Assembly (NCBI GenBank): GCA_007378985.1
Contig: VMHB01000001.1
Coordinates: forward strand, 192,252 to 256,251
Direction: 5' to 3'
Source of the DNA: Parcubacteria group bacterium Greene0714_7
Lineage (GTDB): Bacteria; Patescibacteriota; Minisyncoccia; Phycocordibacterales; Phycocordibacteraceae
DNA length: 64,000 nucleotides
The notes under the pieces were generated by a model, which worked only from the letters and a program-made list of their open reading frames with translations, did not search any database and was not told the origin of the DNA. Every line of letters starts with the position of its first letter. Within the stretch, counting starts at the first letter, position 1. A program made the position numbers and the translations under genes. This document shows, piece by piece, positions 6,236 to 52,969 of the stretch.

Positions 6236-6321
6236 TTTCTAAATTTCTACTCCTCTCGAATTTCTAACTCTTAGAAAGAACTGTGTGAGAAAATTTTTCC
6301 GCAATACCTTTATAAACTCAT

Positions 6322-6357
6322 CCTCTAAACACTATCATATATGATAGTGTTTAGAGG
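6322..6357. promoter_or_regulatory. 36-bp perfect palindrome (operator-like) ending at the start codon of the TrpR-like gene
   Basis: CCTCTAAACACTATCATATATGATAGTGTTTAGAGG. A TATAAA box lies about 6 nt upstream. Confidence 0.6.
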
Positions 6358-6786
6358 ATGAAGGTTAAACCAAAAAAACTCACAAAAGATCAAATTATTG
6401 AAACTCTTGATGCTTTATATACAGCGGCAGGGTCACTACGAGGGCGTGCCACTATGAAATTATTTCTTCGCGATCTTCTGACCGAAGGAGAGAGGGTGAT
6501 GCTTGGTAGACGCATTCTGATTGCAAGACATCTTTTACGGGGTGAAAGCTATATCAGTATTCAACGTACTCTTGGCACAAGTCCTGTAACAATACGAAAT
6601 GTAGAGAAATGGTTAGACGATCAAATGCCGGGGTACGAGACAGCGATTAAGGGTATGCAAGCAACTTTTGCAAAGCGAAAACAAAAAAGCGCATCCATTG
6701 GCACATTTGCTTACTTAAAGAAGCGTTACCCGTTGCACTTTCTCCTCTTTCCGTGGCCAAAAGGGTATCGTACGGAAGATCAGTAA
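6358..6786 (+). CDS. TrpR-like DNA-binding protein (YerC/YecD family), paralog 1
   Basis: Conserved family segment LYTAAGSLRGRATMKLFLRDLLTEGERVMLGRR. It is paralogous to the ORF at 52390-52782. Confidence 0.8.
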   Translation: MKVKPKKLTKDQIIETLDALYTAAGSLRGRATMKLFLRDLLTEGERVMLGRRILIARHLLRGESYISIQRTLGTSPVTIRNVEKWLDDQMPGYETAIKGMQATFAKRKQKSASIGTFAYLKKRYPLHFLLFPWPKGYRTEDQ

Positions 6787-6793
6787 TATAAAC

Positions 6794-6813
6794 CACTATC
6801 ATATATGATAGTG
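6794..6813. promoter_or_regulatory. 20-bp perfect palindrome with the same core as the upstream operator, between the TrpR-like gene and rarA
   Basis: CACTATCATATATGATAGTG. Confidence 0.5.
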
Positions 6814-6882
6814 ATAATGAACACAGAGTAGAAGTTTGTTAAGTATGTGGAAGGGGTGTATGTGTCGCACATAAAAGATACA

Positions 6883-16345: not shown

Positions 16346-17257
16346 ATGAAAAAAACACCTGCGCCTATTGTTGTGAAAGGAACTTTCAAACTCAAGTCGG
16401 GTTTGGCTGACATGCTAAAGGGCGGTGTCATTATGGATGTCGTAAATGTAGAGCATGCAAAGATTGCAGAAGATGCCGGGGCTGTTGCGGTGATGGCCCT
16501 CGAGCGGGTGCCGTCTGATATTCGTGCCATGGGTGGTGTAGCTCGTATGTCTGATCCAAAAATGATTAAAGGCATACAGTCTGCTGTTACCATTCCTGTA
16601 ATGGCAAAGTGCAGAATAGGGCACTTCGTGGAGGCACAGGTACTCGAAGCTCTGGCTGTGGATTTCATTGATGAAAGCGAAGTGCTTACTCCTGCAGACG
16701 AACAATTTCATATTTCAAAAGAAAATTTCACCGTGCCGTTTGTGTGTGGCGCCCGTGATTTAGGGGAGGCTCTCAGAAGAATCTCTGAAGGAGCCGCAAT
16801 GATACGAACAAAGGGTGAAGCGGGTAGTGGAAATATTGTGGAAGCAGTACGGCACATTCGTGCGATGCAAGCAGGTATTACTGAGCTTGTCGACCTTCTT
16901 AAGAAAAAGAATACAAAAAAATTACAAACGCTTGCTCGTGAGTATAGGGTTTCATATGAATTGGTTTTAAAAGTAGTGAAGCTGGGACGATTGCCGGTAG
17001 TTAATTTTGCAGCGGGAGGCATTGCAACTCCAGCGGACGCAGCGCTCTGTATGCAACTTGGTGTTGATGGTGTGTTTGTAGGTTCAGGGATATTTAAGAG
17101 TTCAAATCCTAAAAAAACAGCGAGGGCTATTGTTGACTCCGTTGCTCACTTTAATGATGCAAAAAAGATTGCACTAGCAAGTGAAGATGTAGGAGAGGCT
17201 ATGAAGGGGCAAGAAATTTCAGCTCTCCAAACTCGTTTAGCAAGTCGTGGTATTTAG
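16346..17257 (+). CDS. pdxS: Pyridoxal 5'-phosphate synthase lyase subunit
   Basis: PdxS/SNZ signature ([22 protein letters not shown]). Confidence 0.9.
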
Positions 17258-17264
17258 TGCTTCC

Positions 17265-17867
17265 ATGCGCTCTCTCACGGTAGGTGTTCTCGCGCTTCAA
17301 GGCGATGTGAGTGAGCATATAGAAGCAACCAAATCGGCAGGGACTCTTTTAAAGATTCCAATCACCGTTATATCTGTTCGTATAGCGGGTGATTTGGAAA
17401 CACTTGACGCTCTTATTATTCCTGGGGGTGAAAGCACCACACTGCAAAAACTGTGCGAAAGGGAAGGAATGTTTCAGAAAATGAAAAAAGTGAAGAATAT
17501 ATTTGGCACCTGTGCTGGGGCAATTCTTCTAGCAAAAGAAGTTTTACATAAAACATCAGACCAAAAAACTCTAGCTCTTATGAATATAGAGGTGGATAGA
17601 AATGCCTATGGTCGCCAGAATGAATCTTTCGAAAGGGTAATTGAGACGGAATTTGGACAAATGAATGCGGTTTTTATTCGTGCTCCAAAAATACGAACCG
17701 TTGGAAAGAAACTAAAGGTACTTGCTAGAAATGGAACTGAAATAGTTGCCTGTGAGGAACGAGATGGAGGCAGATACTACTTAGCCACGTGTTTTCATCC
17801 AGAGTACACCTCTGGCGCTTTCCATAAATATTTTTTAGAGCAGACTTTGCGAGAGGTAGTTGGGTAG
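17265..17867 (+). CDS. pdxT: Pyridoxal 5'-phosphate synthase glutaminase subunit
   Basis: Class I glutamine amidotransferase (GVLALQGD, catalytic Cys in GTCAG). It overlaps the pdxS stop. Confidence 0.85.
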   Translation: MRSLTVGVLALQGDVSEHIEATKSAGTLLKIPITVISVRIAGDLETLDALIIPGGESTTLQKLCEREGMFQKMKKVKNIFGTCAGAILLAKEVLHKTSDQKTLALMNIEVDRNAYGRQNESFERVIETEFGQMNAVFIRAPKIRTVGKKLKVLARNGTEIVACEERDGGRYYLATCFHPEYTSGAFHKYFLEQTLREVVG

Positions 17868-18959: not shown

Positions 18960-19916
18960 CTAGTCAGTTTCAAAAAGCTCACTCAAAGATTCGCCATTAT
19001 TAAGGCGATTTATAGCATTGCCAAAAATTTCACCCACAGAAATAATTTCTATCTTTTGAGATAATGCTTGTGTTGGGAGAACGCTATCAGTTATGAATAT
19101 TTTTTTAACGGGCGAACGATCAATAGAGGCCATGGCATTTCCTGAAAGTATTCCGTGCGTTGCGGCAGCGTAGACTTCTTTTGCACCATTCTCCATAAGC
19201 AAAGCAGAGGCTTTTTCAAGAGTTCCGCAGGTATCAAACATGTCATCAATGATGAGTGCAATCTTTCCTTTTACATCACCGACAAGTTTCATGGCCGTTA
19301 CCTGATTTGGAATTTCTCGTTGCTTGTGAATAATTGCAAGATCCACATTTTTTGTTAGTCGTTTTGCGTATGATTGTGCACGACTTACACCGCCAACATC
19401 TGGGGAAACAACCACAAGCTCTTCTTTTGCTAATGCATCAGCAAAGAAGGATTGGAAGAAAGAAATAAATACAGGTCGTGCGTATAAATAATCAACATTT
19501 GTGTCTCTAAAGAATCCGCCGATGGCATCTGTATGTAAGTCCATTGCTAAAATTTTGTCAGTACCGAGCGTTTCAAGAAGCACCGCCACTACTCGAGCGG
19601 AAATTGGTTCACGAGGCTTTGCTTTCCTCTCCTGTCTGGCATATCCCATATACGGGAGTACGACTGTGATTTCCCTGGCAGATGCACCGCGTGCAGCTTC
19701 AACGGCGAGGAATAAGCGCATCCAATTTTCAGCAGGTGGGTTAGTGGACTGAACAAGAAATACACTCTTCCCACGAAGGTTCTCCATAAACTGCACATGC
19801 TGTTCGCCATCAGAGAATGTTTTCAGTTTTATTTTCCCCAAGGAGGTGCCGAGCTTTGATGCAATTTTTTCAGCAAGAGGGTCGTTCGAGCCGAGGCTGA
19901 AAATTGCGTAGTCCAT
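18960..19916 (-). CDS. prs: Ribose-phosphate pyrophosphokinase
   Basis: PRPP synthetase motifs (DLHTDAIGGFF, PRPP-binding loop VSPDVGGV). The start is taken at MDYAIFSLGSN. Confidence 0.85.
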   Translation of the reverse strand: MDYAIFSLGSNDPLAEKIASKLGTSLGKIKLKTFSDGEQHVQFMENLRGKSVFLVQSTNPPAENWMRLFLAVEAARGASAREITVVLPYMGYARQERKAKPREPISARVVAVLLETLGTDKILAMDLHTDAIGGFFRDTNVDYLYARPVFISFFQSFFADALAKEELVVVSPDVGGVSRAQSYAKRLTKNVDLAIIHKQREIPNQVTAMKLVGDVKGKIALIIDDMFDTCGTLEKASALLMENGAKEVYAAATHGILSGNAMASIDRSPVKKIFITDSVLPTQALSQKIEIISVGEIFGNAINRLNNGESLSELFETD

Positions 19917-20180
19917 CCGGTTGTGAGTTTTGGCGTCATGCCCGCAGTCGTCCGTAGAGATTGAAGTGTGCCCCATATATTTAGATGAAGTGGACTATAC
20001 CACTGCCGTTATGGGCATAAAAGACCGCAACGCCAAAATCTACAACGGGATCCATTAGTGGGGAGTATATCAAGAACTGTGTCTAATGTGTAACATTTTC
20101 CTCCTTGCATGGGTTTATGTATTCAGCACTAGGATACATGCGTAAAGGAGTCCTGTGTCTTATACTGCTTTAATACACCA

Positions 20181-20609
20181 ATGATTAACGTAAACCAACT
20201 CACTGAGGCTTCAGAGCAAAACATACAGGAACTAGAGCTTCTCTCGGGTATGTTGCATGGCGATGAACGAAAATCATCGGCAGACGAAATTGCCCGTATA
20301 CTCAGTAACCCCTCTGTTATTTTTGTTGTTGCAAAAGATGGGGAACGTATTATTGGGATGGGTGCGCTCTATATACATCAGAAAGTTGGTAAAATAGGGT
20401 CATATATAGAAGATGTCATTGTTGATAGTGCGTACCGTGGGAAAGGATTAGGTAAAGAAATAGTACAAGCTCTCATTGATGGAGCACGCGAGCGGGGGGT
20501 AGTATCAGTTTCACTTACCTCACGACCAGAAAGAATTGCAGCGCATACTTTGTATGAAAAACTTGGTTTTAAAAAATATGACACAAATGTTTTTAGAATT
20601 ACCCTCTAA
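20181..20609 (+). CDS. GNAT family N-acetyltransferase
   Basis: GNAT acetyl-CoA binding motif (VDSAYRGKGLGKEIV). Confidence 0.75.
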   Translation: MINVNQLTEASEQNIQELELLSGMLHGDERKSSADEIARILSNPSVIFVVAKDGERIIGMGALYIHQKVGKIGSYIEDVIVDSAYRGKGLGKEIVQALIDGARERGVVSVSLTSRPERIAAHTLYEKLGFKKYDTNVFRITL

Positions 20610-20621
20610 TAGATAGCTCTA

Positions 20622-21767
20622 ATGTCACGGGTAAAAATTACGGAGTATAGAGCTAAGAAACTTATACTTGGGGACGCATATGCGGGTCGTTCCTTGTCGG
20701 GTATTTCTGATGTTGGGTTTACGAAACCCAACATGGTGGTGAAGGTTGATCAAGGGATTAAGAAGCGTTTTAAGCAGGGGCTTGTTGCGGTCAATGTTTC
20801 TTCAAAGGAGGCAGGGCAGAAAGTAAGGGAATGGGAAAAGCGAGGTTTTTCTCATTTTCTTGTTGAGCCGTATGTATCGCATGAGGAGTCTGAAGAGCAG
20901 TACCTTTTTTTAGAGCGGGTACGCACGGGGATACGAGTTCTACATGCTTCTTCGGGTGGTATTGATATCGAGGCACACCCAGAACTAGTGAAAACATATC
21001 TCATAAACCCGGCACTATCATATATGGTAGTGCCGGGCATCCCAGAAAAATTCTTGAAACATCTTGTGGAGGTGTTTGAAAAAAACTTTTTCTCTTTTCT
21101 TGAAATTAATCCACTTGTTGTTCGGGGAGATGAGGTATATATCCTCGATGCAGCGGTGCTCGTCGACAGCGCGGGAATATTTTTCGTCAAAAATGGATGG
21201 AACGAAGAAGACGTTGTTGAGGGAAAGGTACGACATATTGCTGAAGAAAAAGTACAGGCACTTCAAAAAACTACCCCTGCCTCCCTGAAACTCACCATTT
21301 TGCACCCTGATGGAGGTTTGTTTTTTCTGCTTTCAGGTGGTGGTGGAAGTATTGTTATTGCAGATGAGGCAGAACTTAATGGTGTGGGTCGCTCCATTGG
21401 TAATTATGGAGAATATAGCGGTGGTCCAACTCGAGAAGAAACACATCTCTACGCACGAGAGGTGATTCAGCTATTACTTAATTCACCTGCAAAGAAGAAG
21501 GCGCTCGTGATTGCTGGAGGTATTGCAAATTTTACTGATGTTAAGTCAACATTTAAGGGTATTGTTGATGCCTTGTCAGAGTGCGCGAGCACTCTTCGAG
21601 GAAAAGGTGTAAAAGTATTTGTGCGTCGTGGCGGACCGAATGAAATTGAAGGGCTTCTTTTTATGGAAGAGTATTTAAAAAAAGAAAAATTATTTGGTTC
21701 AGTGTATGGTTCTGGTGCAGTAATTACGAGTGCAGTTGATGATGCCATTGCATTTATAAAAAAATGA
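20622..21767 (+). CDS. aclB: ATP-citrate lyase beta subunit (ATP-grasp, SucC-like)
   Basis: Blocks match the N-terminal half of ATP-citrate lyase: VVKVDQGIKKRFKQGLVAVN, FLEINPLVV, ASLKLTILHPDGG, GNYGEYSGGP, ALVIAGGIANFTDVKSTFKGIV and VFVRRGGPN. Confidence 0.8.
   Translation: MSRVKITEYRAKKLILGDAYAGRSLSGISDVGFTKPNMVVKVDQGIKKRFKQGLVAVNVSSKEAGQKVREWEKRGFSHFLVEPYVSHEESEEQYLFLERVRTGIRVLHASSGGIDIEAHPELVKTYLINPALSYMVVPGIPEKFLKHLVEVFEKNFFSFLEINPLVVRGDEVYILDAAVLVDSAGIFFVKNGWNEEDVVEGKVRHIAEEKVQALQKTTPASLKLTILHPDGGLFFLLSGGGGSIVIADEAELNGVGRSIGNYGEYSGGPTREETHLYAREVIQLLLNSPAKKKALVIAGGIANFTDVKSTFKGIVDALSECASTLRGKGVKVFVRRGGPNEIEGLLFMEEYLKKEKLFGSVYGSGAVITSAVDDAIAFIKK
21011..21034. promoter_or_regulatory. 24-bp near-perfect palindrome inside aclB that matches the TrpR-like paralog-1 operator core (19/20)
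   Basis: GGCACTATCATATATGGTAGTGCC versus operator CACTATCATATATGATAGTG. Confidence 0.4.
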
Positions 21768-21813
21768 ACCCCGTTAGAAATACCACCTGCACAGATTTCT
21801 AAAATATTTATAT

Positions 21814-23652
21814 ATGAAAAAGCGCATTGATAAAATTTCTAACGGGGTGAACATACTTGAATTAACACGGAGTGGAAGAGCAAGAGTTCTCGTCATAGGG
21901 AATCATTCAGGCATTATTCAGTCAATGCTCGATTTTGATTTTCTTTCAGGCAAGGAAATTCCTTCTGTATTGGGGATAGTTGCAGGGAATCGTAAGGCAG
22001 AAAAATATTTTTTTGGGACTAAAGAAATTTTGTTGCCATGCTATAAGAATATTCAAATTGCTTCGGAGGCCTTAGGTTCAAAGGTCGACTGGATGCTTAA
22101 TCTTCAGTCGGGACGGCGTACATTTGAATCAACGGTTTCCTTTTTTGATTTTTTCCCAAAATCGCTTGGGGCACACATATTTGCAGAAAATGTTCCAGAA
22201 AGTCACGCAACTGAGCTCATTTCTCGTTTTGGTAAGAAGTATTTTATCGTAGGGCCTTCAGGAGTTGGATTGTTGATACCAGGCGCTTTGAAGCTTGGCG
22301 CCATTGGTGGTGTTGATGCGGTTCAAATTAAATCTGGAGCACTGACAAACGCTGGAAATATTGCGGTTGGTTCAACTTCTGGAGGAATGACTAATGAGCT
22401 GATTCATGCAGTTGCGCGTGCTGGGAAAAGACTCTCGTTTGCAATAGCTATTGGCGGAGACAGGTTTCCTGTAGTTTCTTTGACGCAGATATTTGCGCTT
22501 GCTGAAGCAGATTCTCAAACAGAAGGATTTGTATATTTTGGAGAGCTTGGCGGTGTAGATGAATATGAAATTATTGAGCTCATTAAGGCAAAAAAGTTCA
22601 CCAAACCTCTTGTTGCGTATATTGCGGGAATTATAGATGAAGCATTTGATGAACATGTACAATTTGGGCATGCAAAGGCATTGGTGCAGACAATGGATGA
22701 AAGTGCTCGTGCAAAGCGTGAGGCACTTCGCGAGGCTGGTGTTATTGCTCCTGATACATTTCCTCAGTTTCTTGATGCGCTTCAAAAACTTCCCGGAGGC
22801 GCGTATACTGCTGAGGAAATGGATATAGAGCCGCTTCAAGGACGACAGAAAAGTATTCTTTCGACGAGAAAGGTTTCAGACATAGATGAAGGTCGTATTT
22901 TTGTAAAAGGAAAAAAACTTTCGAAAGGCAAAGAAAATGCATTTGTGGACGCTACGTTAGTTGCACTTCTTGGAAAGCCTGTACAGTCTCCAATAACACG
23001 AGCCTTTACCGAAGCTGTGTTTGAAATGCTTATAGACCACGGAGGAAATGTTTCAGGGGCAGTAAATACCATGATTACCGCTCGTGCTGGTAAAGATCTT
23101 GTTTCATCCCTTGCCTCAGGCCTTCTCACTGTTGGTCCCCGTTTTGGTGGAGCAATAAACGAAGCAGCTCGTTTGTGGATTTCGGGTGTTGTATCGCAAA
23201 AAACAGGTTTGGAATTTGTAGCTGAAAAAGCAAAGGCAGGTGAGTTGATTTTAGGCATTGGGCACAAGAAATACCGCGTTGGGCTCCCAGATCCTCGAGT
23301 GAAAGCTCTTGCTGAATTTGCAACGCTTCTTAAAGTACATCCACATTATGATTTCGCACGGAGCGTAGAGAAAGCAACAACTTCAAAAAACGGGAAATTG
23401 ATTTTAAATATCGACGGCGCTATTGCAGCGTTACTCTTAGACATCTTGAGTGAATGCGAAGGGATGAGTCAGCGCGAACTTCAAGAGCTTGCTGATGCTG
23501 AATTCTTTAATGCATTTTTTGTTATTCCTCGCTCTGTAGGTTTCATTGCACATTTCATGGAACAAAAGAAAAATGATGAAGGTTTGTTTCGTCTTCCTGA
23601 TGAACTACTGTTTGTGAGAGCAGAGACTCCAAAGAAAACTAAGAAGAAATAA
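21814..23652 (+). CDS. aclA: ATP-citrate lyase alpha subunit (CoA-binding SucD-like domain plus citrate-synthase-like domain)
   Basis: MLDFDFLSGKEIPSV, ARAGKDLVSSLASGLLTVGPRFGG, GIGHKKYRVGLPDPR (a citrate synthase-type motif) and PRSVGFIAHFMEQ all match the ACLY C-terminal half. Confidence 0.8.
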   Translation: MKKRIDKISNGVNILELTRSGRARVLVIGNHSGIIQSMLDFDFLSGKEIPSVLGIVAGNRKAEKYFFGTKEILLPCYKNIQIASEALGSKVDWMLNLQSGRRTFESTVSFFDFFPKSLGAHIFAENVPESHATELISRFGKKYFIVGPSGVGLLIPGALKLGAIGGVDAVQIKSGALTNAGNIAVGSTSGGMTNELIHAVARAGKRLSFAIAIGGDRFPVVSLTQIFALAEADSQTEGFVYFGELGGVDEYEIIELIKAKKFTKPLVAYIAGIIDEAFDEHVQFGHAKALVQTMDESARAKREALREAGVIAPDTFPQFLDALQKLPGGAYTAEEMDIEPLQGRQKSILSTRKVSDIDEGRIFVKGKKLSKGKENAFVDATLVALLGKPVQSPITRAFTEAVFEMLIDHGGNVSGAVNTMITARAGKDLVSSLASGLLTVGPRFGGAINEAARLWISGVVSQKTGLEFVAEKAKAGELILGIGHKKYRVGLPDPRVKALAEFATLLKVHPHYDFARSVEKATTSKNGKLILNIDGAIAALLLDILSECEGMSQRELQELADAEFFNAFFVIPRSVGFIAHFMEQKKNDEGLFRLPDELLFVRAETPKKTKKK

Positions 23653-23702
23653 TTCCTGTTCCGTAGCCACTTGTTCTGAGTTATTATTGTCCCTACAGTA
23701 TC

Positions 23703-23775
23703 GGGCGGTTAGCTCAGTTGGTAGAGCGTTCCCTTCACACGGGAGAGGTCACAGGTTCGAATCCTGTACCGCCCA
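23703..23775 (+). tRNA. tRNA-Val (anticodon CAC)
   Basis: Cloverleaf with D-loop AGCTCAGTTGGTAGAGC, anticodon loop TTCACAC and T-arm GGTTCGAATCC. Confidence 0.8.
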
Positions 23776-23798
23776 CACATGATTTATTATTGTTAGTT

Positions 23799-23869
23799 CG
23801 GGGCGGAGTATGCCGGTAGTACATACGATTCGGGTTCGTATAGACCGAGTTCGATTCTCGGCGCCCCGA
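23799..23869 (+). tRNA. tRNA-Pro (anticodon CGG)
   Basis: Acceptor CGGGGCG/CGCCCCG, anticodon stem TACGA/TCGTA, loop TTCGGGT with G37, and T-arm CCGAG-TTCGATT-CTCGG. Confidence 0.7.
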
Positions 23870-24004
23870 CTGAACAAAGTGAAGGAGGAAGAACAGACCG
23901 ACTGCTCGGTCTGTGTCCGGAATCGAAAGTCGGAGTCATGCCGTTAGGCAGACGAGACCGGGTAGAAACCACTTAGCGAGTCCTCGAGCGGAGTTCGTTG
24001 ACGC

Positions 24005-24023
24005 CGATTCTCGGCGCCCCGAC
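24005..24023 (+). repeat. Direct repeat of the tRNA-Pro 3' end (19 nt, followed by an encoded CCA), a possible att-like remnant
   Basis: CGATTCTCGGCGCCCCGAC is identical to 23852-23870. The downstream copy continues with CA (ACCA) while the intact tRNA continues with CTG. Confidence 0.6.
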
Positions 24024-24126
24024 CATAGAGGTCAAATATATTTTTTATTCATGGGCCTATAAGCAAAGCTTTTAGGCTCCTCTCTCGAAAAAAGTAGACA
24101 TACATGCCATACTTTCTTTCTCGTTC

Positions 24127-24197
24127 GGGCCTATAGTCTAGTGGTACGACGCTACATTCGCATTGTAGAGGCGCGAGTTCGATTCTCGCTAGGTCCA
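24127..24197 (+). tRNA. tRNA-Ala (anticodon CGC)
   Basis: G3:U70 acceptor pair, anticodon loop TTCGCAT and T-arm GCGAG-TTCGATT-CTCGC. Confidence 0.75.
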
Positions 24198-24208
24198 CAG
24201 AAACAAGG

Positions 24209-24257
24209 ATCTCCCTCCGAAGGAGAAAATCCAGGTTCGACTCCTGGTGAGAGCACC
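24209..24257 (+). pseudogene. tRNA 3' fragment (anticodon arm with CCG, T-arm and acceptor 3' strand, but no 5' half). Possible relic of tRNA-Arg(CCG).
   Basis: TCTCC-CTCCGAA-GGAGA and CCAGG-TTCGACT-CCTGG are present. No matching D-arm or 5' acceptor strand is found. Confidence 0.4.
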
Positions 24258-24323
24258 TTTCGACTCCATGACTCACTCAGAGCAAGCACCCGTGGACTAT
24301 TTTTCTAAACACTACAAAAGAGC

Positions 24324-24365
24324 CAGTATAGTATAAGTTAACGACCGTTAAATTATACTATACTG
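24324..24365. promoter_or_regulatory. 42-bp AT-rich near-palindrome P1 (20-bp arms, AC centre)
   Basis: CAGTATAGTATAAGTTAACG-AC-CGTTAAATTATACTATACTG. Confidence 0.5.
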
Positions 24366-24797: not shown

Positions 24798-24837
24798 TGT
24801 ATAGTATAATTTAACGACCGTTAAATTATACTATACA
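24798..24837. promoter_or_regulatory. 40-bp near-palindrome P2, same family as P1, in the divergent spacer between the 103-aa gene and the NUDIX gene
   Basis: TGTATAGTATAATTTAACG-AC-CGTTAAATTATACTATACA. Confidence 0.5.
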
Positions 24838-25484: not shown

Positions 25485-25988
25485 TCACCACACCCATTTT
25501 ACTGATACAAAAGCAATTGCGAGAACACTAAGAAGTGTGATTCCTTGTAGTGCCATTAATATATATTTATGTGAACGTGCGACATGTGATTTTCTTTTAA
25601 GATATGCACGCCAACCTTGATGAATTAAAATTATATTCCCAGTTAGTGCAAAAATAAGTATTAATGCAGAGGTGTTGGTGGTGAACGCTAATGCGTCAAA
25701 CCCGTAGAGAGCTACACTCGCCCCCACTCCAACAAATAGTATGTCCAGTAGTGCATTTTCTGCATCCTCTACGAGGCCAGCCCCAAACTCAAGAGCTTCG
25801 TAGAGTACTGCTCCACCAGTGATTGCTATAAAAGCGTAGAGAGTGGACACCTCTAGAAACCACGCGAATGCTCCGAATGTTAATCCAGAAAATAGGTGCA
25901 CGAGCGACCAGAAATCAGCATAGCGACCATGCGCCCACCCGAAGTTTACGAGTTTTGAAGCTGTGCGTTCAAAGTTTAATTTCAGCAT
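25485..25988 (-). CDS. Hypothetical integral membrane protein
   Basis: Four or five predicted transmembrane helices. An SD-like GGGAGAAG precedes the chosen ATG. Confidence 0.5.
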   Translation of the reverse strand: MLKLNFERTASKLVNFGWAHGRYADFWSLVHLFSGLTFGAFAWFLEVSTLYAFIAITGGAVLYEALEFGAGLVEDAENALLDILFVGVGASVALYGFDALAFTTNTSALILIFALTGNIILIHQGWRAYLKRKSHVARSHKYILMALQGITLLSVLAIAFVSVKWVW

Positions 25989-26061
25989 CTTCTCCCTAGT
26001 ATACCTTTCCATCTTAAAATATCGTGGTATTCTTTGCGCGTATTCTAAAGAAGAAATACCT

Positions 26062-26580
26062 ATGGACGAAAAACAATTGAACGGGGAGATACGCACTGAA
26101 AAGACTCCACGCACGGTGTATTTTTTTGAGTACCTGACGCGTTGGACGGGTTCCATCCCATCATTGATTGTTCACACAATTCTTTTCGGTGGTGCTTTTG
26201 CTCTTGGGTTCTTTCATGTAGCTCCGTGGGATTCTGTGCTTTTGGTATTGACGACATTAGTTTCTTTAGAAGCAATCTATCTTTCTTTGCTCATACAAAT
26301 GACTGTCAATAGACACTCAGAAAGCTTGAAGGAGGTTGGAGAAGACGTTGAGGGGATTCAGGAAGACATTGAAGAAATTACCGAAGACGTTGAGGGAATT
26401 CAGGAAGACATTGAAGAAATTACCGAAGACGTTGAGGGAATTCAGGAGGATGTTGAAGAAATGACCGAAGAAGATGCTGAAGACGCAGAATTAGAAAAGC
26501 GTCATCTCGTGAGCCTAGAGCAGTTAACAAAAGATGTACAACGGGTTTTACAGGACTTGGAGAAATTCAAGAAACAGTGA
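26062..26580 (+). CDS. DUF1003-like membrane protein with an acidic C-terminal tandem repeat
   Basis: Two transmembrane helices (FGGAFALGFFHVAPW...) are followed by three copies of a 14-aa repeat VEGIQEDIEEITED. Confidence 0.55.
   Translation: MDEKQLNGEIRTEKTPRTVYFFEYLTRWTGSIPSLIVHTILFGGAFALGFFHVAPWDSVLLVLTTLVSLEAIYLSLLIQMTVNRHSESLKEVGEDVEGIQEDIEEITEDVEGIQEDIEEITEDVEGIQEDVEEMTEEDAEDAELEKRHLVSLEQLTKDVQRVLQDLEKFKKQ
26347..26472 (+). repeat. Three tandem copies of a 42-bp in-frame repeat inside the DUF1003-like gene
   Basis: GTTGAGGGAATTCAGGAAGACATTGAAGAAATTACCGAAGAC x3, with a few substitutions in copies 1 and 3. Confidence 0.8.
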
Positions 26581-40011: not shown

Positions 40012-40185
40012 GAATTGCTGATTGAAGTCGAGTGTTTCATACACTAACTAGCCAATTTTTTATTTAGGAGATATTAGAAAAAAGAAAAATGGAAACAGTG
40101 GGTTGATATAGTTCAACAAATAGGAAGTAGGGCAAAATAAATTAGGACCCTCTAATAATTAATGCCCCGTGTCTCCGAAAAACAC

Positions 40186-40227
40186 CTGTATAGTATAAAA
40201 TCACGGTCGTGATTTTATACTATACAG
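40186..40227. promoter_or_regulatory. 42-bp near-palindrome P3 (same family as P1/P2, with compensatory arm changes) upstream of ychF
   Basis: CTGTATAGTATAAAATCACG-GT-CGTGATTTTATACTATACAG. Confidence 0.5.
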
Positions 40228-40287
40228 GGTTTTAAATTTTTTTTTTAGGCTAGCCACTAAAGCCTAAACCCTATACACTGCTCCTTT

Positions 40288-48960: not shown

Positions 48961-49000
48961 CCATTTCTTATATATCGATTAATCGATATATAAGAAATGG
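48961..49000. promoter_or_regulatory. 40-bp perfect palindrome immediately upstream of a consensus promoter
   Basis: CCATTTCTTATATATCGATTAATCGATATATAAGAAATGG. Confidence 0.6.
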
Positions 49001-52351: not shown

Positions 52352-52395
52352 GACTGAGAAACTTATTTCCATATATGGAAATAAGTTTCTCAGTC
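52352..52395. promoter_or_regulatory. 44-bp perfect palindrome over the 3' end of the second TrpR-like gene. It is followed on the plus strand by a T-run, so it probably also terminates the Cas4-like gene.
   Basis: GACTGAGAAACTTATTTCCATATATGGAAATAAGTTTCTCAGTC followed by TAATTTTTTCTTTTTT. Confidence 0.6.
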
Positions 52396-52782
52396 TAATT
52401 TTTTCTTTTTTGGTTCTGGAAATAGAAGAAAATGCAACGGGTATTTGCGTTTAAGTGCTCTGAAAGAAAATGGACCATAGTTCGCCTCAAAAAGGTTTTC
52501 CCTCTTTTTGAATTCTTTATCCATGCTTTTGATTGCTTCCTCGAATCCAGGAAATTGATCTTGAAGCCATCGTTCTACTCGGTATATGGTTGCCAATCCA
52601 ACGCGTAGTTTTGTGGCGATGTCATTAGCTCGTTCGCCTTGGATAAGGAGTCGAGCTATCCAAATTCGCCTTCCAAGCATGATTCTCTCGCTTTCAGTGA
52701 GAAGATCGCGCAGGAAGAGTTTCATTGTGCTTCGTCCGCGAACTGATCCCGCTGCAGTGTAGAGAATATCTAGTGTTTTCAT
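52390..52782 (-). CDS. TrpR-like DNA-binding protein (YerC/YecD family), paralog 2
   Basis: MKTLDILYTAAGSVRGRSTMKLFLRDLLTESERIMLGRR matches paralog 1. A strong SD (AAGGAGGAG) precedes the internal ATG chosen as start. Confidence 0.8.
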   Translation of the reverse strand: MKTLDILYTAAGSVRGRSTMKLFLRDLLTESERIMLGRRIWIARLLIQGERANDIATKLRVGLATIYRVERWLQDQFPGFEEAIKSMDKEFKKRENLFEANYGPFSFRALKRKYPLHFLLFPEPKKKKLD

Positions 52783-52875
52783 TTTCTCCTCCTTTCCAAG
52801 GTCGCTAGATTTTCTTTTCATACTGAACATATTTTCATATATGGAAATATCTGCACGAAAACATGGTGTATAACT

Positions 52876-52917
52876 TCACTCACATGTATTTCCATATATG
52901 GAAATACATGTGAGTGA
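52876..52917. promoter_or_regulatory. 42-bp perfect palindrome in the divergent spacer between TrpR-like paralog 2 and the MGMT-like gene. An imperfect copy lies at 52849-52868.
   Basis: TCACTCACATGTATTTCCATATATGGAAATACATGTGAGTGA. The core TTTCCATATATGGAAA is shared with the 52352 palindrome. Confidence 0.6.
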
Positions 52918-52969
52918 ACAGATTTGGGCGTGCAAGATGAGCTAGGCAAAAGGGTGGTATATTTGATAA

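Follow-up and report, generated by a model that had tools for sequence, protein, structure and literature searches.

A two-gene ATP-citrate lyase of Paceibacteria-type Patescibacteria, linked to acetyltransferase genes and probably serving acetyl-CoA supply rather than carbon fixation

ATP-citrate lyase (ACL) converts citrate, ATP and CoA to acetyl-CoA and oxaloacetate. The closest described forms are ACLY-A/B of Methanosaeta (Methanothrix) concilii (PDB entries 6hxi and 6znw) and human ACLY (6poe, 6hxh), the latter a fused polypeptide; AclB/AclA of Chlorobium limicola (6hxj) is the classical enzyme of the reductive tricarboxylic acid (rTCA) cycle, and in Hydrogenobacter thermophilus the same chemistry is divided over two enzymes, citryl-CoA synthetase (CCS) and citryl-CoA lyase (CCL; 6hxq, 6hxp), with all domains homologous. 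Within the candidate phyla radiation (CPR), ACL has already been mentioned in the literature: aclAB is listed as enriched in metagenome-assembled genomes (MAGs) of Ca. Saccharimonadia (PMC12577380), and a preprint describes citrate-cleavage enzymes of CPR and DPANN members mis-annotated as succinyl-CoA synthetase (SCS) or citrate synthase (10.1101/2022.10.25.513756). Here we describe an aclB-aclA pair in a 64,000-nucleotide stretch of DNA (contig VMHB01000001.1, positions 192,252 to 256,251; hereafter the window) from Parcubacteria group bacterium Greene0714_7. The enzyme itself is an ordinary member of the ACL family; in the searchable literature we found no account of the Paceibacteria ACL clade to which it belongs, of the linkage of that clade to GNAT-family N-acetyltransferase genes, or of a role such as the one proposed below.

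By every sequence criterion, aclB and aclA are predicted to specify the two subunits of a working ATP-citrate lyase of the heteromeric type (EC 2.3.3.8), in the gene order read from the open reading frames (ORFs) in an initial annotation of this DNA. The domain order is that of the M. concilii and human enzymes, and both the two-gene aclB-aclA order and the domains are shared with C. limicola. AclB matched the Pfam models Citrate_bind (PF16114; 162 bits, cut-off 26.8) and ACL ATP-grasp (PF24948; 100 bits, cut-off 83). AclA carried Ligase_CoA and Succ_CoA_lig followed by a C-terminal citrate-synthase-like domain (PF00285; 75.9 bits, residues 380-593), together with the citrate-synthase-like motif GIGHKKYRVGLPDPR that had been pointed out earlier. 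In a search of all PDB chains, AclB residues 35-374 aligned near end-to-end with human ACLY residues 52-417 (E = 7e-57), and AclA residues 22-602 with human residues 496-1095 (E = 3e-98); AclA residues 24-599 also aligned with residues 14-606 of M. concilii 6hxi_B (E = 5e-97). The two ORFs thus match the N- and C-terminal halves of ACLY, as first proposed. Identity to the M. concilii and human enzymes is only about 36%, the beta subunit is shorter (381 aa as compared with 421-425), having lost ∼17 residues just past its first strand, two genes stand in place of the fused eukaryotic polypeptide, and the host lacks the context of a TCA cycle.

Functional residues were located through HMMER alignments to human ACLY, using positions that we take to be those given in the structure papers (for citrate binding, the paper on 3MWD), and were then checked in 41 AclA and 38 AclB sequences of related loci; AclA numbering follows the 612-aa ORF. 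The catalytic His and Glu, whose absence the initial annotation had named as grounds for doubt, are present: the phosphohistidine H286 (in QFGHAKA) aligned to human H760 and E125 (in FAENVPE) to human E599. The citryl-CoA lyase triad H409, H484 and D534 corresponds to human H900, H975 and D1026, and the citrate-binding residues G267, N303, T305 and R336 of AclB to human G309, N346, T348 and R379. With R573 of AclA and K41 of AclB, all eleven functional residues examined were invariant in these relatives.

Both genes appear to be working genes under strong purifying selection, with a ratio of nonsynonymous to synonymous substitution rates (dN/dS) of 0.06-0.10 against relatives at 80-88% protein identity; the value for aclB was 0.08-0.10 against loci L032 and L003, and that for aclA 0.04-0.07, with 0.04 against L001. 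The two genes lie side by side on one strand in the window, as they do at each of the 38 loci that have both. In close relatives the stop codon of aclB and the start codon of aclA share bases (ATGA), an arrangement typical of co-translated subunits.

Phylogenetically, the window enzyme falls within a deep, Patescibacteria-specific ACL clade. When each GTDB species was represented by a single genome, the aclBA pair was present in 44 Patescibacteria species genomes (MAGs). Among the 120 best AclA homologues listed, which were 64-99% identical to the window protein, the named sources were Patescibacteria, Paceibacteria ('Pacebacteria'), Kaiserbacteria or Liptonbacteria; homologue lengths were mostly 590-605 aa, compared with 612 aa for the aclA ORF. 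When representatives were chosen at 50% identity, the whole Paceibacteria group formed one cluster. The next clusters, a handful at 40-51% identity, included one named Dojkabacteria, which is a different CPR class, and the rest lay at 32-38%. ACLs from outside the CPR (archaeal, plant, Aquificae and fused eukaryote-type) were only 32-38% identical to the window enzyme, and the named references among them (Odinarchaeia, Promethearchaeota, Thermoplasmata, Micrarchaeota, Aenigmatarchaeota, Syntropharchaeales, mosses, green algae and Thermovibrio) were about equidistant. A neighbour-joining tree of 581 columns, midpoint-rooted and with the root position not established, gave bootstrap values of 100/100 both for the Paceibacteria group and for a wider CPR-like group including the Dojkabacteria sequence. 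The enzyme is not of the Chlorobi type: AclA scored 192 bits (in two stretches) and AclB 113 bits against C. limicola, as compared to 333 and 196 bits against human ACLY.

The initial annotation had suggested that the pair was possibly acquired horizontally, and recent transfer was considered and rejected. GC content of aclBA was 0.42-0.43 against 0.435 ± 0.017 for the window, along which the GC profile is flat, and GC content at third codon positions (GC3) was 0.30-0.34 against 0.36 ± 0.04; GC, GC3 and synonymous codon usage of both genes were within about 1-1.7 standard deviations of the 37 other window genes. With a composition usual for the window and a wide occurrence of the pair in the group, where it forms a clade of its own, recent transfer is unsupported. 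As a separate observation, some ACL-like proteins of ∼1,000-1,040 aa from metagenome contigs (P0284-P0296 and P0130) carry the AclA-like part at the N terminus (residues ∼15-596), a fusion order opposite to that of eukaryotic ACLY.

The most conserved feature of the surroundings is an acetyltransferase gene. All ORFs of the 44 loci were clustered, and the 37 loci with enough upstream sequence were used for upstream counts; a GNAT gene lay directly upstream of aclB, on the same strand, in 35 of these 37. The slot was divided between two families, c4 (the family of the window gene) in 18 loci and c7 in 16, with both in one. One further locus had c4 directly downstream of aclA instead. The only locus without an adjacent GNAT gene was L031 (8609-10026), where aclB is broken into two overlapping ORFs, either through pseudogene formation or, possibly, through faulty assembly. 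Family c7 is a second GNAT family of ∼209 aa, of which 11 of 11 members tested matched GNAT Pfam models, weakly. The two families do not cluster together and yet alternate in one slot, which argues that acetyl transfer itself is the function linked to ACL. We regard this as good evidence that the GNAT-ACL link is functional. In the window, 12 bp separate the GNAT gene from aclB on the same strand, and it would be the first gene of a putative GNAT-aclB-aclA operon.

PDB searches related this GNAT to acetyltransferases of several kinds. A search with the single sequence placed 3fb3 (PDB name 'N-acetyltransferase'; presumably a GNA1-type enzyme of T. brucei) at the top, with 3t90, another candidate of the GNA1 type, also high. 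A GNA1 (glucosamine-6-phosphate N-acetyltransferase) identity suggested by these matches was not sustained by a search with a 16-sequence profile, in which the diamine acetyltransferase 6yug came first (65 bits), GNA1s scored 36-60 bits among many GNATs, and N-terminal acetyltransferases matched at similar scores.

We thus favor, as the probable explanation, that aclBA is the functional ACL of a deep Patescibacteria branch and the core of a module feeding acetyl-CoA made from citrate to GNAT enzymes, and that it does not serve carbon fixation. The physiological role is our inference. By homology, the beta subunit would bind ATP through its ATP-grasp domain and citrate; His286 of the alpha subunit would be phosphorylated and then hand its phosphate to citrate; attack by CoA would give citryl-CoA; and the fused C-terminal lyase module (His409, His484 and Asp534) would split this into acetyl-CoA and oxaloacetate. 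Citrate from the host or the surroundings could in this way become the acetyl-CoA that acetyl-transfer reactions draw on, among them the reaction of the neighbouring GNAT. Patescibacteria have no full TCA cycle, lack many biosynthetic pathways and are host-dependent (PMC9530719), and some encode di- or tricarboxylate transporters (PMC9868632). In one subclade, an in-frame TrpR/YerC-type palindrome within aclB may in addition tie the operon to a TrpR/YerC-like regulator.

Several observations weigh against this account. No citrate transporter gene was found within the 64-kb window. The PDB searches did not single out an acceptor for the GNAT, and its task could be another one, the regulation of ACL through acetylation of lysines. 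Around the phosphohistidine the loop has GHAKA where human ACLY has GHAGA, although the Lys is invariant within the clade. Finally, the link to a regulator is drawn from palindrome identity in one genome together with an upstream palindrome at one other locus, L007. A more ambitious version, in which the GNAT-AclB-AclA module is the main acetyl-CoA route from host citrate in Paceibacteria-type CPR and, in addition, aclB of one subclade was remodelled to host a TrpR/YerC-like operator or hairpin kept by compensatory change inside the ATP-grasp domain, is doubtful as a whole.

The second part of that proposal depends on the palindrome. The 30-nt element CCCGGCACTATCATATATGGTAGTGCCGGG, with a 13-bp stem and a 4-nt loop, is unique in the window and was matched in 0 of 100 shuffles; the predicted folding energy of the corresponding RNA is −24.3 kcal/mol (z = −5.9). 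The encoded NPALSYMVVPG is part of a variable ATP-grasp loop. The 20-nt core of the palindrome, CACTATCATATATGGTAGTG, is identical at 19 of 20 positions to the cores of the two palindromes that flank a Trp_repressor-family gene of the window (TrpR/YerC-like paralog 1), the upstream one of which overlaps that gene's ribosome-binding site and start codon; the relation to a paralog-1 operator proposed at the outset was thus confirmed. The palindrome is confined to a subclade consisting of the window, L001, L002, L035, L032, L003 and L037, and at the same position every other locus, even the fairly close L004 and L028, carries a non-palindromic segment that is 3 aa longer. The arms co-vary within the subclade (A-T to C-G, T-A to A-T and T-A to G-C), and the changes also alter the encoded residues (L/H/R, S/P and V/G/I). 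Across the seven sequences 92% of cells pair and two pairs are changed on both sides; the covariation score was reached by 1 of 500 shuffles, seven related sequences being a small sample.

TrpR operator half-sites in E. coli have the sequence GTACTA(G). The TrpR-like paralogs of the window share PF01371 with E. coli TrpR and YerC-YecD (41 bits for paralog 1 and 49 bits for the second, cut-off 27), and the half-site G(C/T)ACTA resembles TrpR GTACTAG; NCBIfam TrpR/YerC models remained below cut-off (19-28 bits against 42-67). The window palindromes differ from the TrpR/YerC arrangement in being 24-44 nt long with a CATATATG centre, in lying on both sides of the gene, and in the one copy inside a coding sequence. 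Both TrpR-like genes of the window have copies of their own perfect palindrome of this kind on either side, one of them lying over the start region of the gene; the two around the second paralog have a different core. An 88% orthologue of paralog 1 in L052 keeps both palindromes, and variants of the aclB-palindrome core found in L032 and L003 adjoin TrpR-like genes elsewhere (L055 2110-2135 and L052 17654-17687). Between uvrA and uvrC, L052 also has an extra TrpR-like gene with a 75-aa ORF and a palindrome, ∼890 bp in all (16825-17713). Because of this extra cassette, TrpR-like genes with palindromic ends may be mobile cassettes.

An operator or RNA hairpin and the solo end of a mobile TrpR-like cassette explain the aclB palindrome about equally well. 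That it has no regulatory role, being a selfish or mutational quasi-palindrome or a solo cassette end kept symmetric by template-switch repair, has in our estimate somewhat less than an even chance. In favor of this, the palindrome occurs patchily (L037 has it and the closer L004 does not), it replaces a 3-aa-longer segment in a variable loop, a palindrome pair surrounds every TrpR-like gene, L052 has the extra cassette, and the stem has mismatches in two of the seven sequences. Against it, the same core overlaps the promoter and start of a TrpR-like gene, a position usually read as a sign of autoregulation, the half-site GCACTA is similar to GTACTA of E. coli TrpR, and in L007, the only locus with an upstream copy, a similar palindrome lies 34-55 nt upstream of aclB. 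At the related aclBA loci, no TrpR-like gene was found in the 10 kb to either side of aclA. A 28-nt pattern of the aclB palindrome had 0 matches in metagenomes, and a relaxed 24-nt pattern had 26, none in aclB or beside a TrpR-like or ACL gene; several of these resemble terminator hairpins of unrelated organisms.

Among other explanations of the module itself, the one that survives best is that the GNAT regulates ACL by acetylating lysines of AclA or AclB when acetyl-CoA is high. Precedents exist, as Pat acetylates acetyl-CoA synthetase and PCAF acetylates human ACLY, and the conserved GNAT-aclBA adjacency and the profile matches to protein N-acetyltransferases (3f8k, Naa30 and RimI) would fit. 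The exchange of two non-clustering GNAT families at one slot is harder to reconcile with a specific protein-protein regulator, however, and the best PDB matches (6yug and 3fb3) are small-molecule acetyltransferases, so we consider regulation unlikely.

A little less probable again is that ACL works in the opposite direction here and yields ATP as a citrate synthase, making citrate, ATP and CoA from acetyl-CoA, oxaloacetate, ADP and Pi. The ACL reaction is close to equilibrium, sequence does not fix its direction, and reverse ACL has reportedly been found to act as the citrate synthase of Desulfobacter postgatei. For a fermentative cell this would add one substrate-level phosphorylation, and Patescibacteria are energy-limited fermenters (PMC9530719). 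Citrate would nevertheless be a dead-end product without the rest of the cycle, and the linkage of an acetyl-CoA-consuming GNAT in 35 of 37 loci fits acetyl-CoA production better.

The rTCA cycle, whether as autotrophic CO2 fixation by the bacterium alone or jointly with its host, is highly improbable. ACL is the classical marker of this cycle and is so used in MAG surveys (PMC12930757, PMC10811913), and a split cycle shared by symbiont and host has been proposed in the preprint cited above (10.1101/2022.10.25.513756); beyond the marker itself nothing here favors it. No genes for 2-oxoglutarate:ferredoxin oxidoreductase, fumarate reductase or pyruvate:ferredoxin oxidoreductase were found in the 64-kb window or within ±10 kb in the relatives, no other rTCA gene occurs in the 64 kb, and Patescibacteria are reported to be without a full TCA cycle (PMC9530719). 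The enzyme shows no special kinship to Chlorobium or Aquificae ACLs (the C. limicola score is given above; identity to Thermovibrio is 36%), and its conserved partner is an acetyltransferase rather than a cycle enzyme. The initial annotation had offered the rTCA cycle and citrate cleavage for acetyl-CoA supply as alternatives; of these, supply is much better supported.

That the ORFs are subunits of a succinyl-CoA or citryl-CoA synthetase without lyase activity, as weak matches to SCS models might suggest, is already refuted at the level of sequence, given scores far under the curated cut-offs (TIGR01016, 44 against 375 bits; NF004230, 96 against 336), an ACL-specific citrate-binding domain, a fused lyase with an intact His/His/Asp triad, and AclA scores against PDB chains of 333 bits for ACLY, 63-67 for Hydrogenobacter CCS/CCL (63 for the small CCS subunit) and 59-81 for SCS-alpha. 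SucC/SucD identity was rejected on the same scores and the ACL-specific extra domains; the grouping with such synthetases that would have undone the initial annotation was thus not seen. Cleavage by a two-enzyme CCS/CCL system was rejected as well, since the lyase module is fused to AclA and is not a stand-alone protein of ∼260 aa, scores against 6hxp and 6hxq were low (the H. thermophilus comparisons gave only 52, 63 and 68 bits), and the NCBIfam models for citryl-CoA lyase and citrate synthase remained below cut-off (NF004869, 82 against 212).

If the module is a source of acetyl-CoA, citrate would be a metabolite that these bacteria need from their hosts, which could be useful for cultivation. 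ACL is routinely taken as a marker of rTCA autotrophy, and a CPR clade that has the enzyme without the cycle would give false autotrophy calls. The naming of the proteins adds to the difficulty: the NCBI name for Patescibacteria AclA is 'citrate/2-methylcitrate synthase' or 'hypothetical protein', which is the mis-annotation described for CPR in the preprint and would give false calls of a 'partial TCA cycle' and missed ACLs, while JGI uses ATP citrate (pro-S)-lyase. Where CPR bins have been reported to contain 'citrate synthase / partial TCA cycle' (PMC5220378, PMC11608272), this may partly reflect the citrate-synthase-like domain of AclA. We consider an ACL clade fixed to an acetyltransferase, in which the rTCA meaning of the marker fails, to be moderately interesting. 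The deep CPR branch is also worth adding to the discussion of citrate synthase ancestry. The lyase module of ACLY is said to have been proposed as the ancestor of citrate synthase.

The junction of the two genes in the window has been altered by an insertion (Table 1). In L001, L002 and L035, aclA begins within the last bases of aclB (AAAAAAATGAACATA), whereas the window has 83 extra bases that are unique to this genome and consist of a 78-bp element and a duplication of TGAAC (21765-21769 and 21848-21852). The element has terminal inverted repeats of 12-13 bp, CCCGTTAGAAAT/ATTTCTAACGGG. Terminal inverted repeats, a target-site duplication and presence/absence polymorphism (absence from L001, L002 and L035) are criteria for miniature inverted-repeat transposable elements (MITEs), and the insertion appears to bear the signature of MITE-like transposition; neither the 78-bp element nor its inverted repeats were found a second time in the window or at all in 82 loci. 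The old aclA start now opens a 12-codon upstream ORF (ATG 21764 to TAA 21802), and the element supplies an in-frame ATG at 21814 that adds 11 N-terminal residues to the 612-aa ORF. The ancestral start is now GTG 21847, from which the protein has 601 aa. The aclA ORF beginning at 21814, as first annotated, is therefore right as to its coordinates, but its first 11 codons derive from the insertion and do not include the ancestral start. Both genes are intact, and the insertion, which would be recent, may have uncoupled translation of aclA from that of aclB without damage to either.

A second local irregularity concerns AclB residues ∼18-70 (20680-20830; AGRSLSGISDVGFTKPNMVV...NVSSKEAGQ), which match the distant L032 and not L001, L002 or L035. 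Such a mosaic patch suggests allele exchange by recombination, and it accounts for the dN/dS of 0.35 for aclB against L001.

Table 1. Features of the 64,000-nucleotide window considered in the text (positions within the window)
Feature	Position	Strand	Remarks
TrpR/YerC-like paralog 1 (gene 6358-6786) with palindromes 6318-6361 and 6792-6815	6318..6815	+	PF01371
UvrC, 409 aa	13338..14567		
prs	18960..19976	-	beyond the GNAT gene as seen from aclB
GNAT N-acetyltransferase (142 aa, family c4)	20181..20609	+	Pfam Acetyltransf_1, 74.5 bits
aclB, ATP-citrate lyase beta (ATP-grasp and citrate-binding domains), 381 aa	20622..21767	+	PF16114, PF24948
Palindrome within aclB, 30 nt, near-perfect, codons 129-139 (NPALSYMVVPG)	21008..21037		TrpR/YerC-operator type, core CACTATCATATATGGTAGTG
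MITE-like insertion between aclB and aclA	21765..21852		78-bp element 21770-21847 plus TGAAC duplication
aclA, ATP-citrate lyase alpha (CoA-binding and phosphohistidine domains, fused citryl-CoA lyase), 612 aa	21814..23652	+	Ligase_CoA, Succ_CoA_lig, Citrate_synt
Second TrpR-like paralog	52390..52830	-	two flanking palindromes (region 52352-52918)
AlaRS, 635 aa	56346..58253		

The source of the window is a Paceibacteria-type Patescibacterium, and L001 (JAGOSG010000001, Ca. Paceibacterota Gw_Eff_bin_311) is 94-97% identical to it in DNA over 21 kb; one protein of the window is 100% identical to a protein listed for Greene0714_7. Outside the GNAT slot, the neighbours of aclBA vary by subgroup: prs, mltG and pdxST in the group of the window, and in a Kaiserbacteria-like group recO, metS and argS upstream and glyS, tatD, rpsF and ssb downstream, with different sets in the remaining loci. 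The GNAT gene and prs noted beside aclBA at the outset are both found upstream. The description of the segment as dominated by housekeeping functions also holds: the window encodes ribonucleotide reductase, aminoacyl-tRNA synthetases, UvrABC, Ddl, PdxST, Prs, MltG, an F-type ATPase, an RND pump, YchF and MnmA, and its 64-kb content is otherwise housekeeping. UvrC and AlaRS, which had been called reduced, are indeed short. In UvrC nothing was detected beyond the UVR motif and an RNase H-like endonuclease domain, and Pfam found no helix-hairpin-helix tail; AlaRS retains the catalytic core and the second additional domain, and Pfam found no C-terminal DHHA1 region. A scan of 19900-24300 for sigma-70 promoters and terminators gave matches no more numerous than in shuffles.

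Other repeats were observed in the window. A second family of intergenic palindromes, 38-48 nt long and of the form (C)TGTATAGTATAAnnTnACG / CGTnAnnTTATACTATACA(G) with a TATAAT-like box in each arm, occurs at 24324-24365, 24798-24837 and 40185-40228, and in relatives at L001 12644, L002 15081 and 15568, L028 6703, L032 13286 and L035 12855. Other long perfect intergenic palindromes lie at 48961-49000 and 2822-2847 (CCATTTCTTATATATCGATTAATCGATATATAAGAAATGG and AAAAACTCTCATGCATGAGAGTTTTT). The ORF at 25963-26580, with only weak DUF948-like matches, contains three tandem copies of the acidic repeat EDVEGIQEDIEEIT (about 26340-26470), which appear as DNA self-matches in the comparison with L001.

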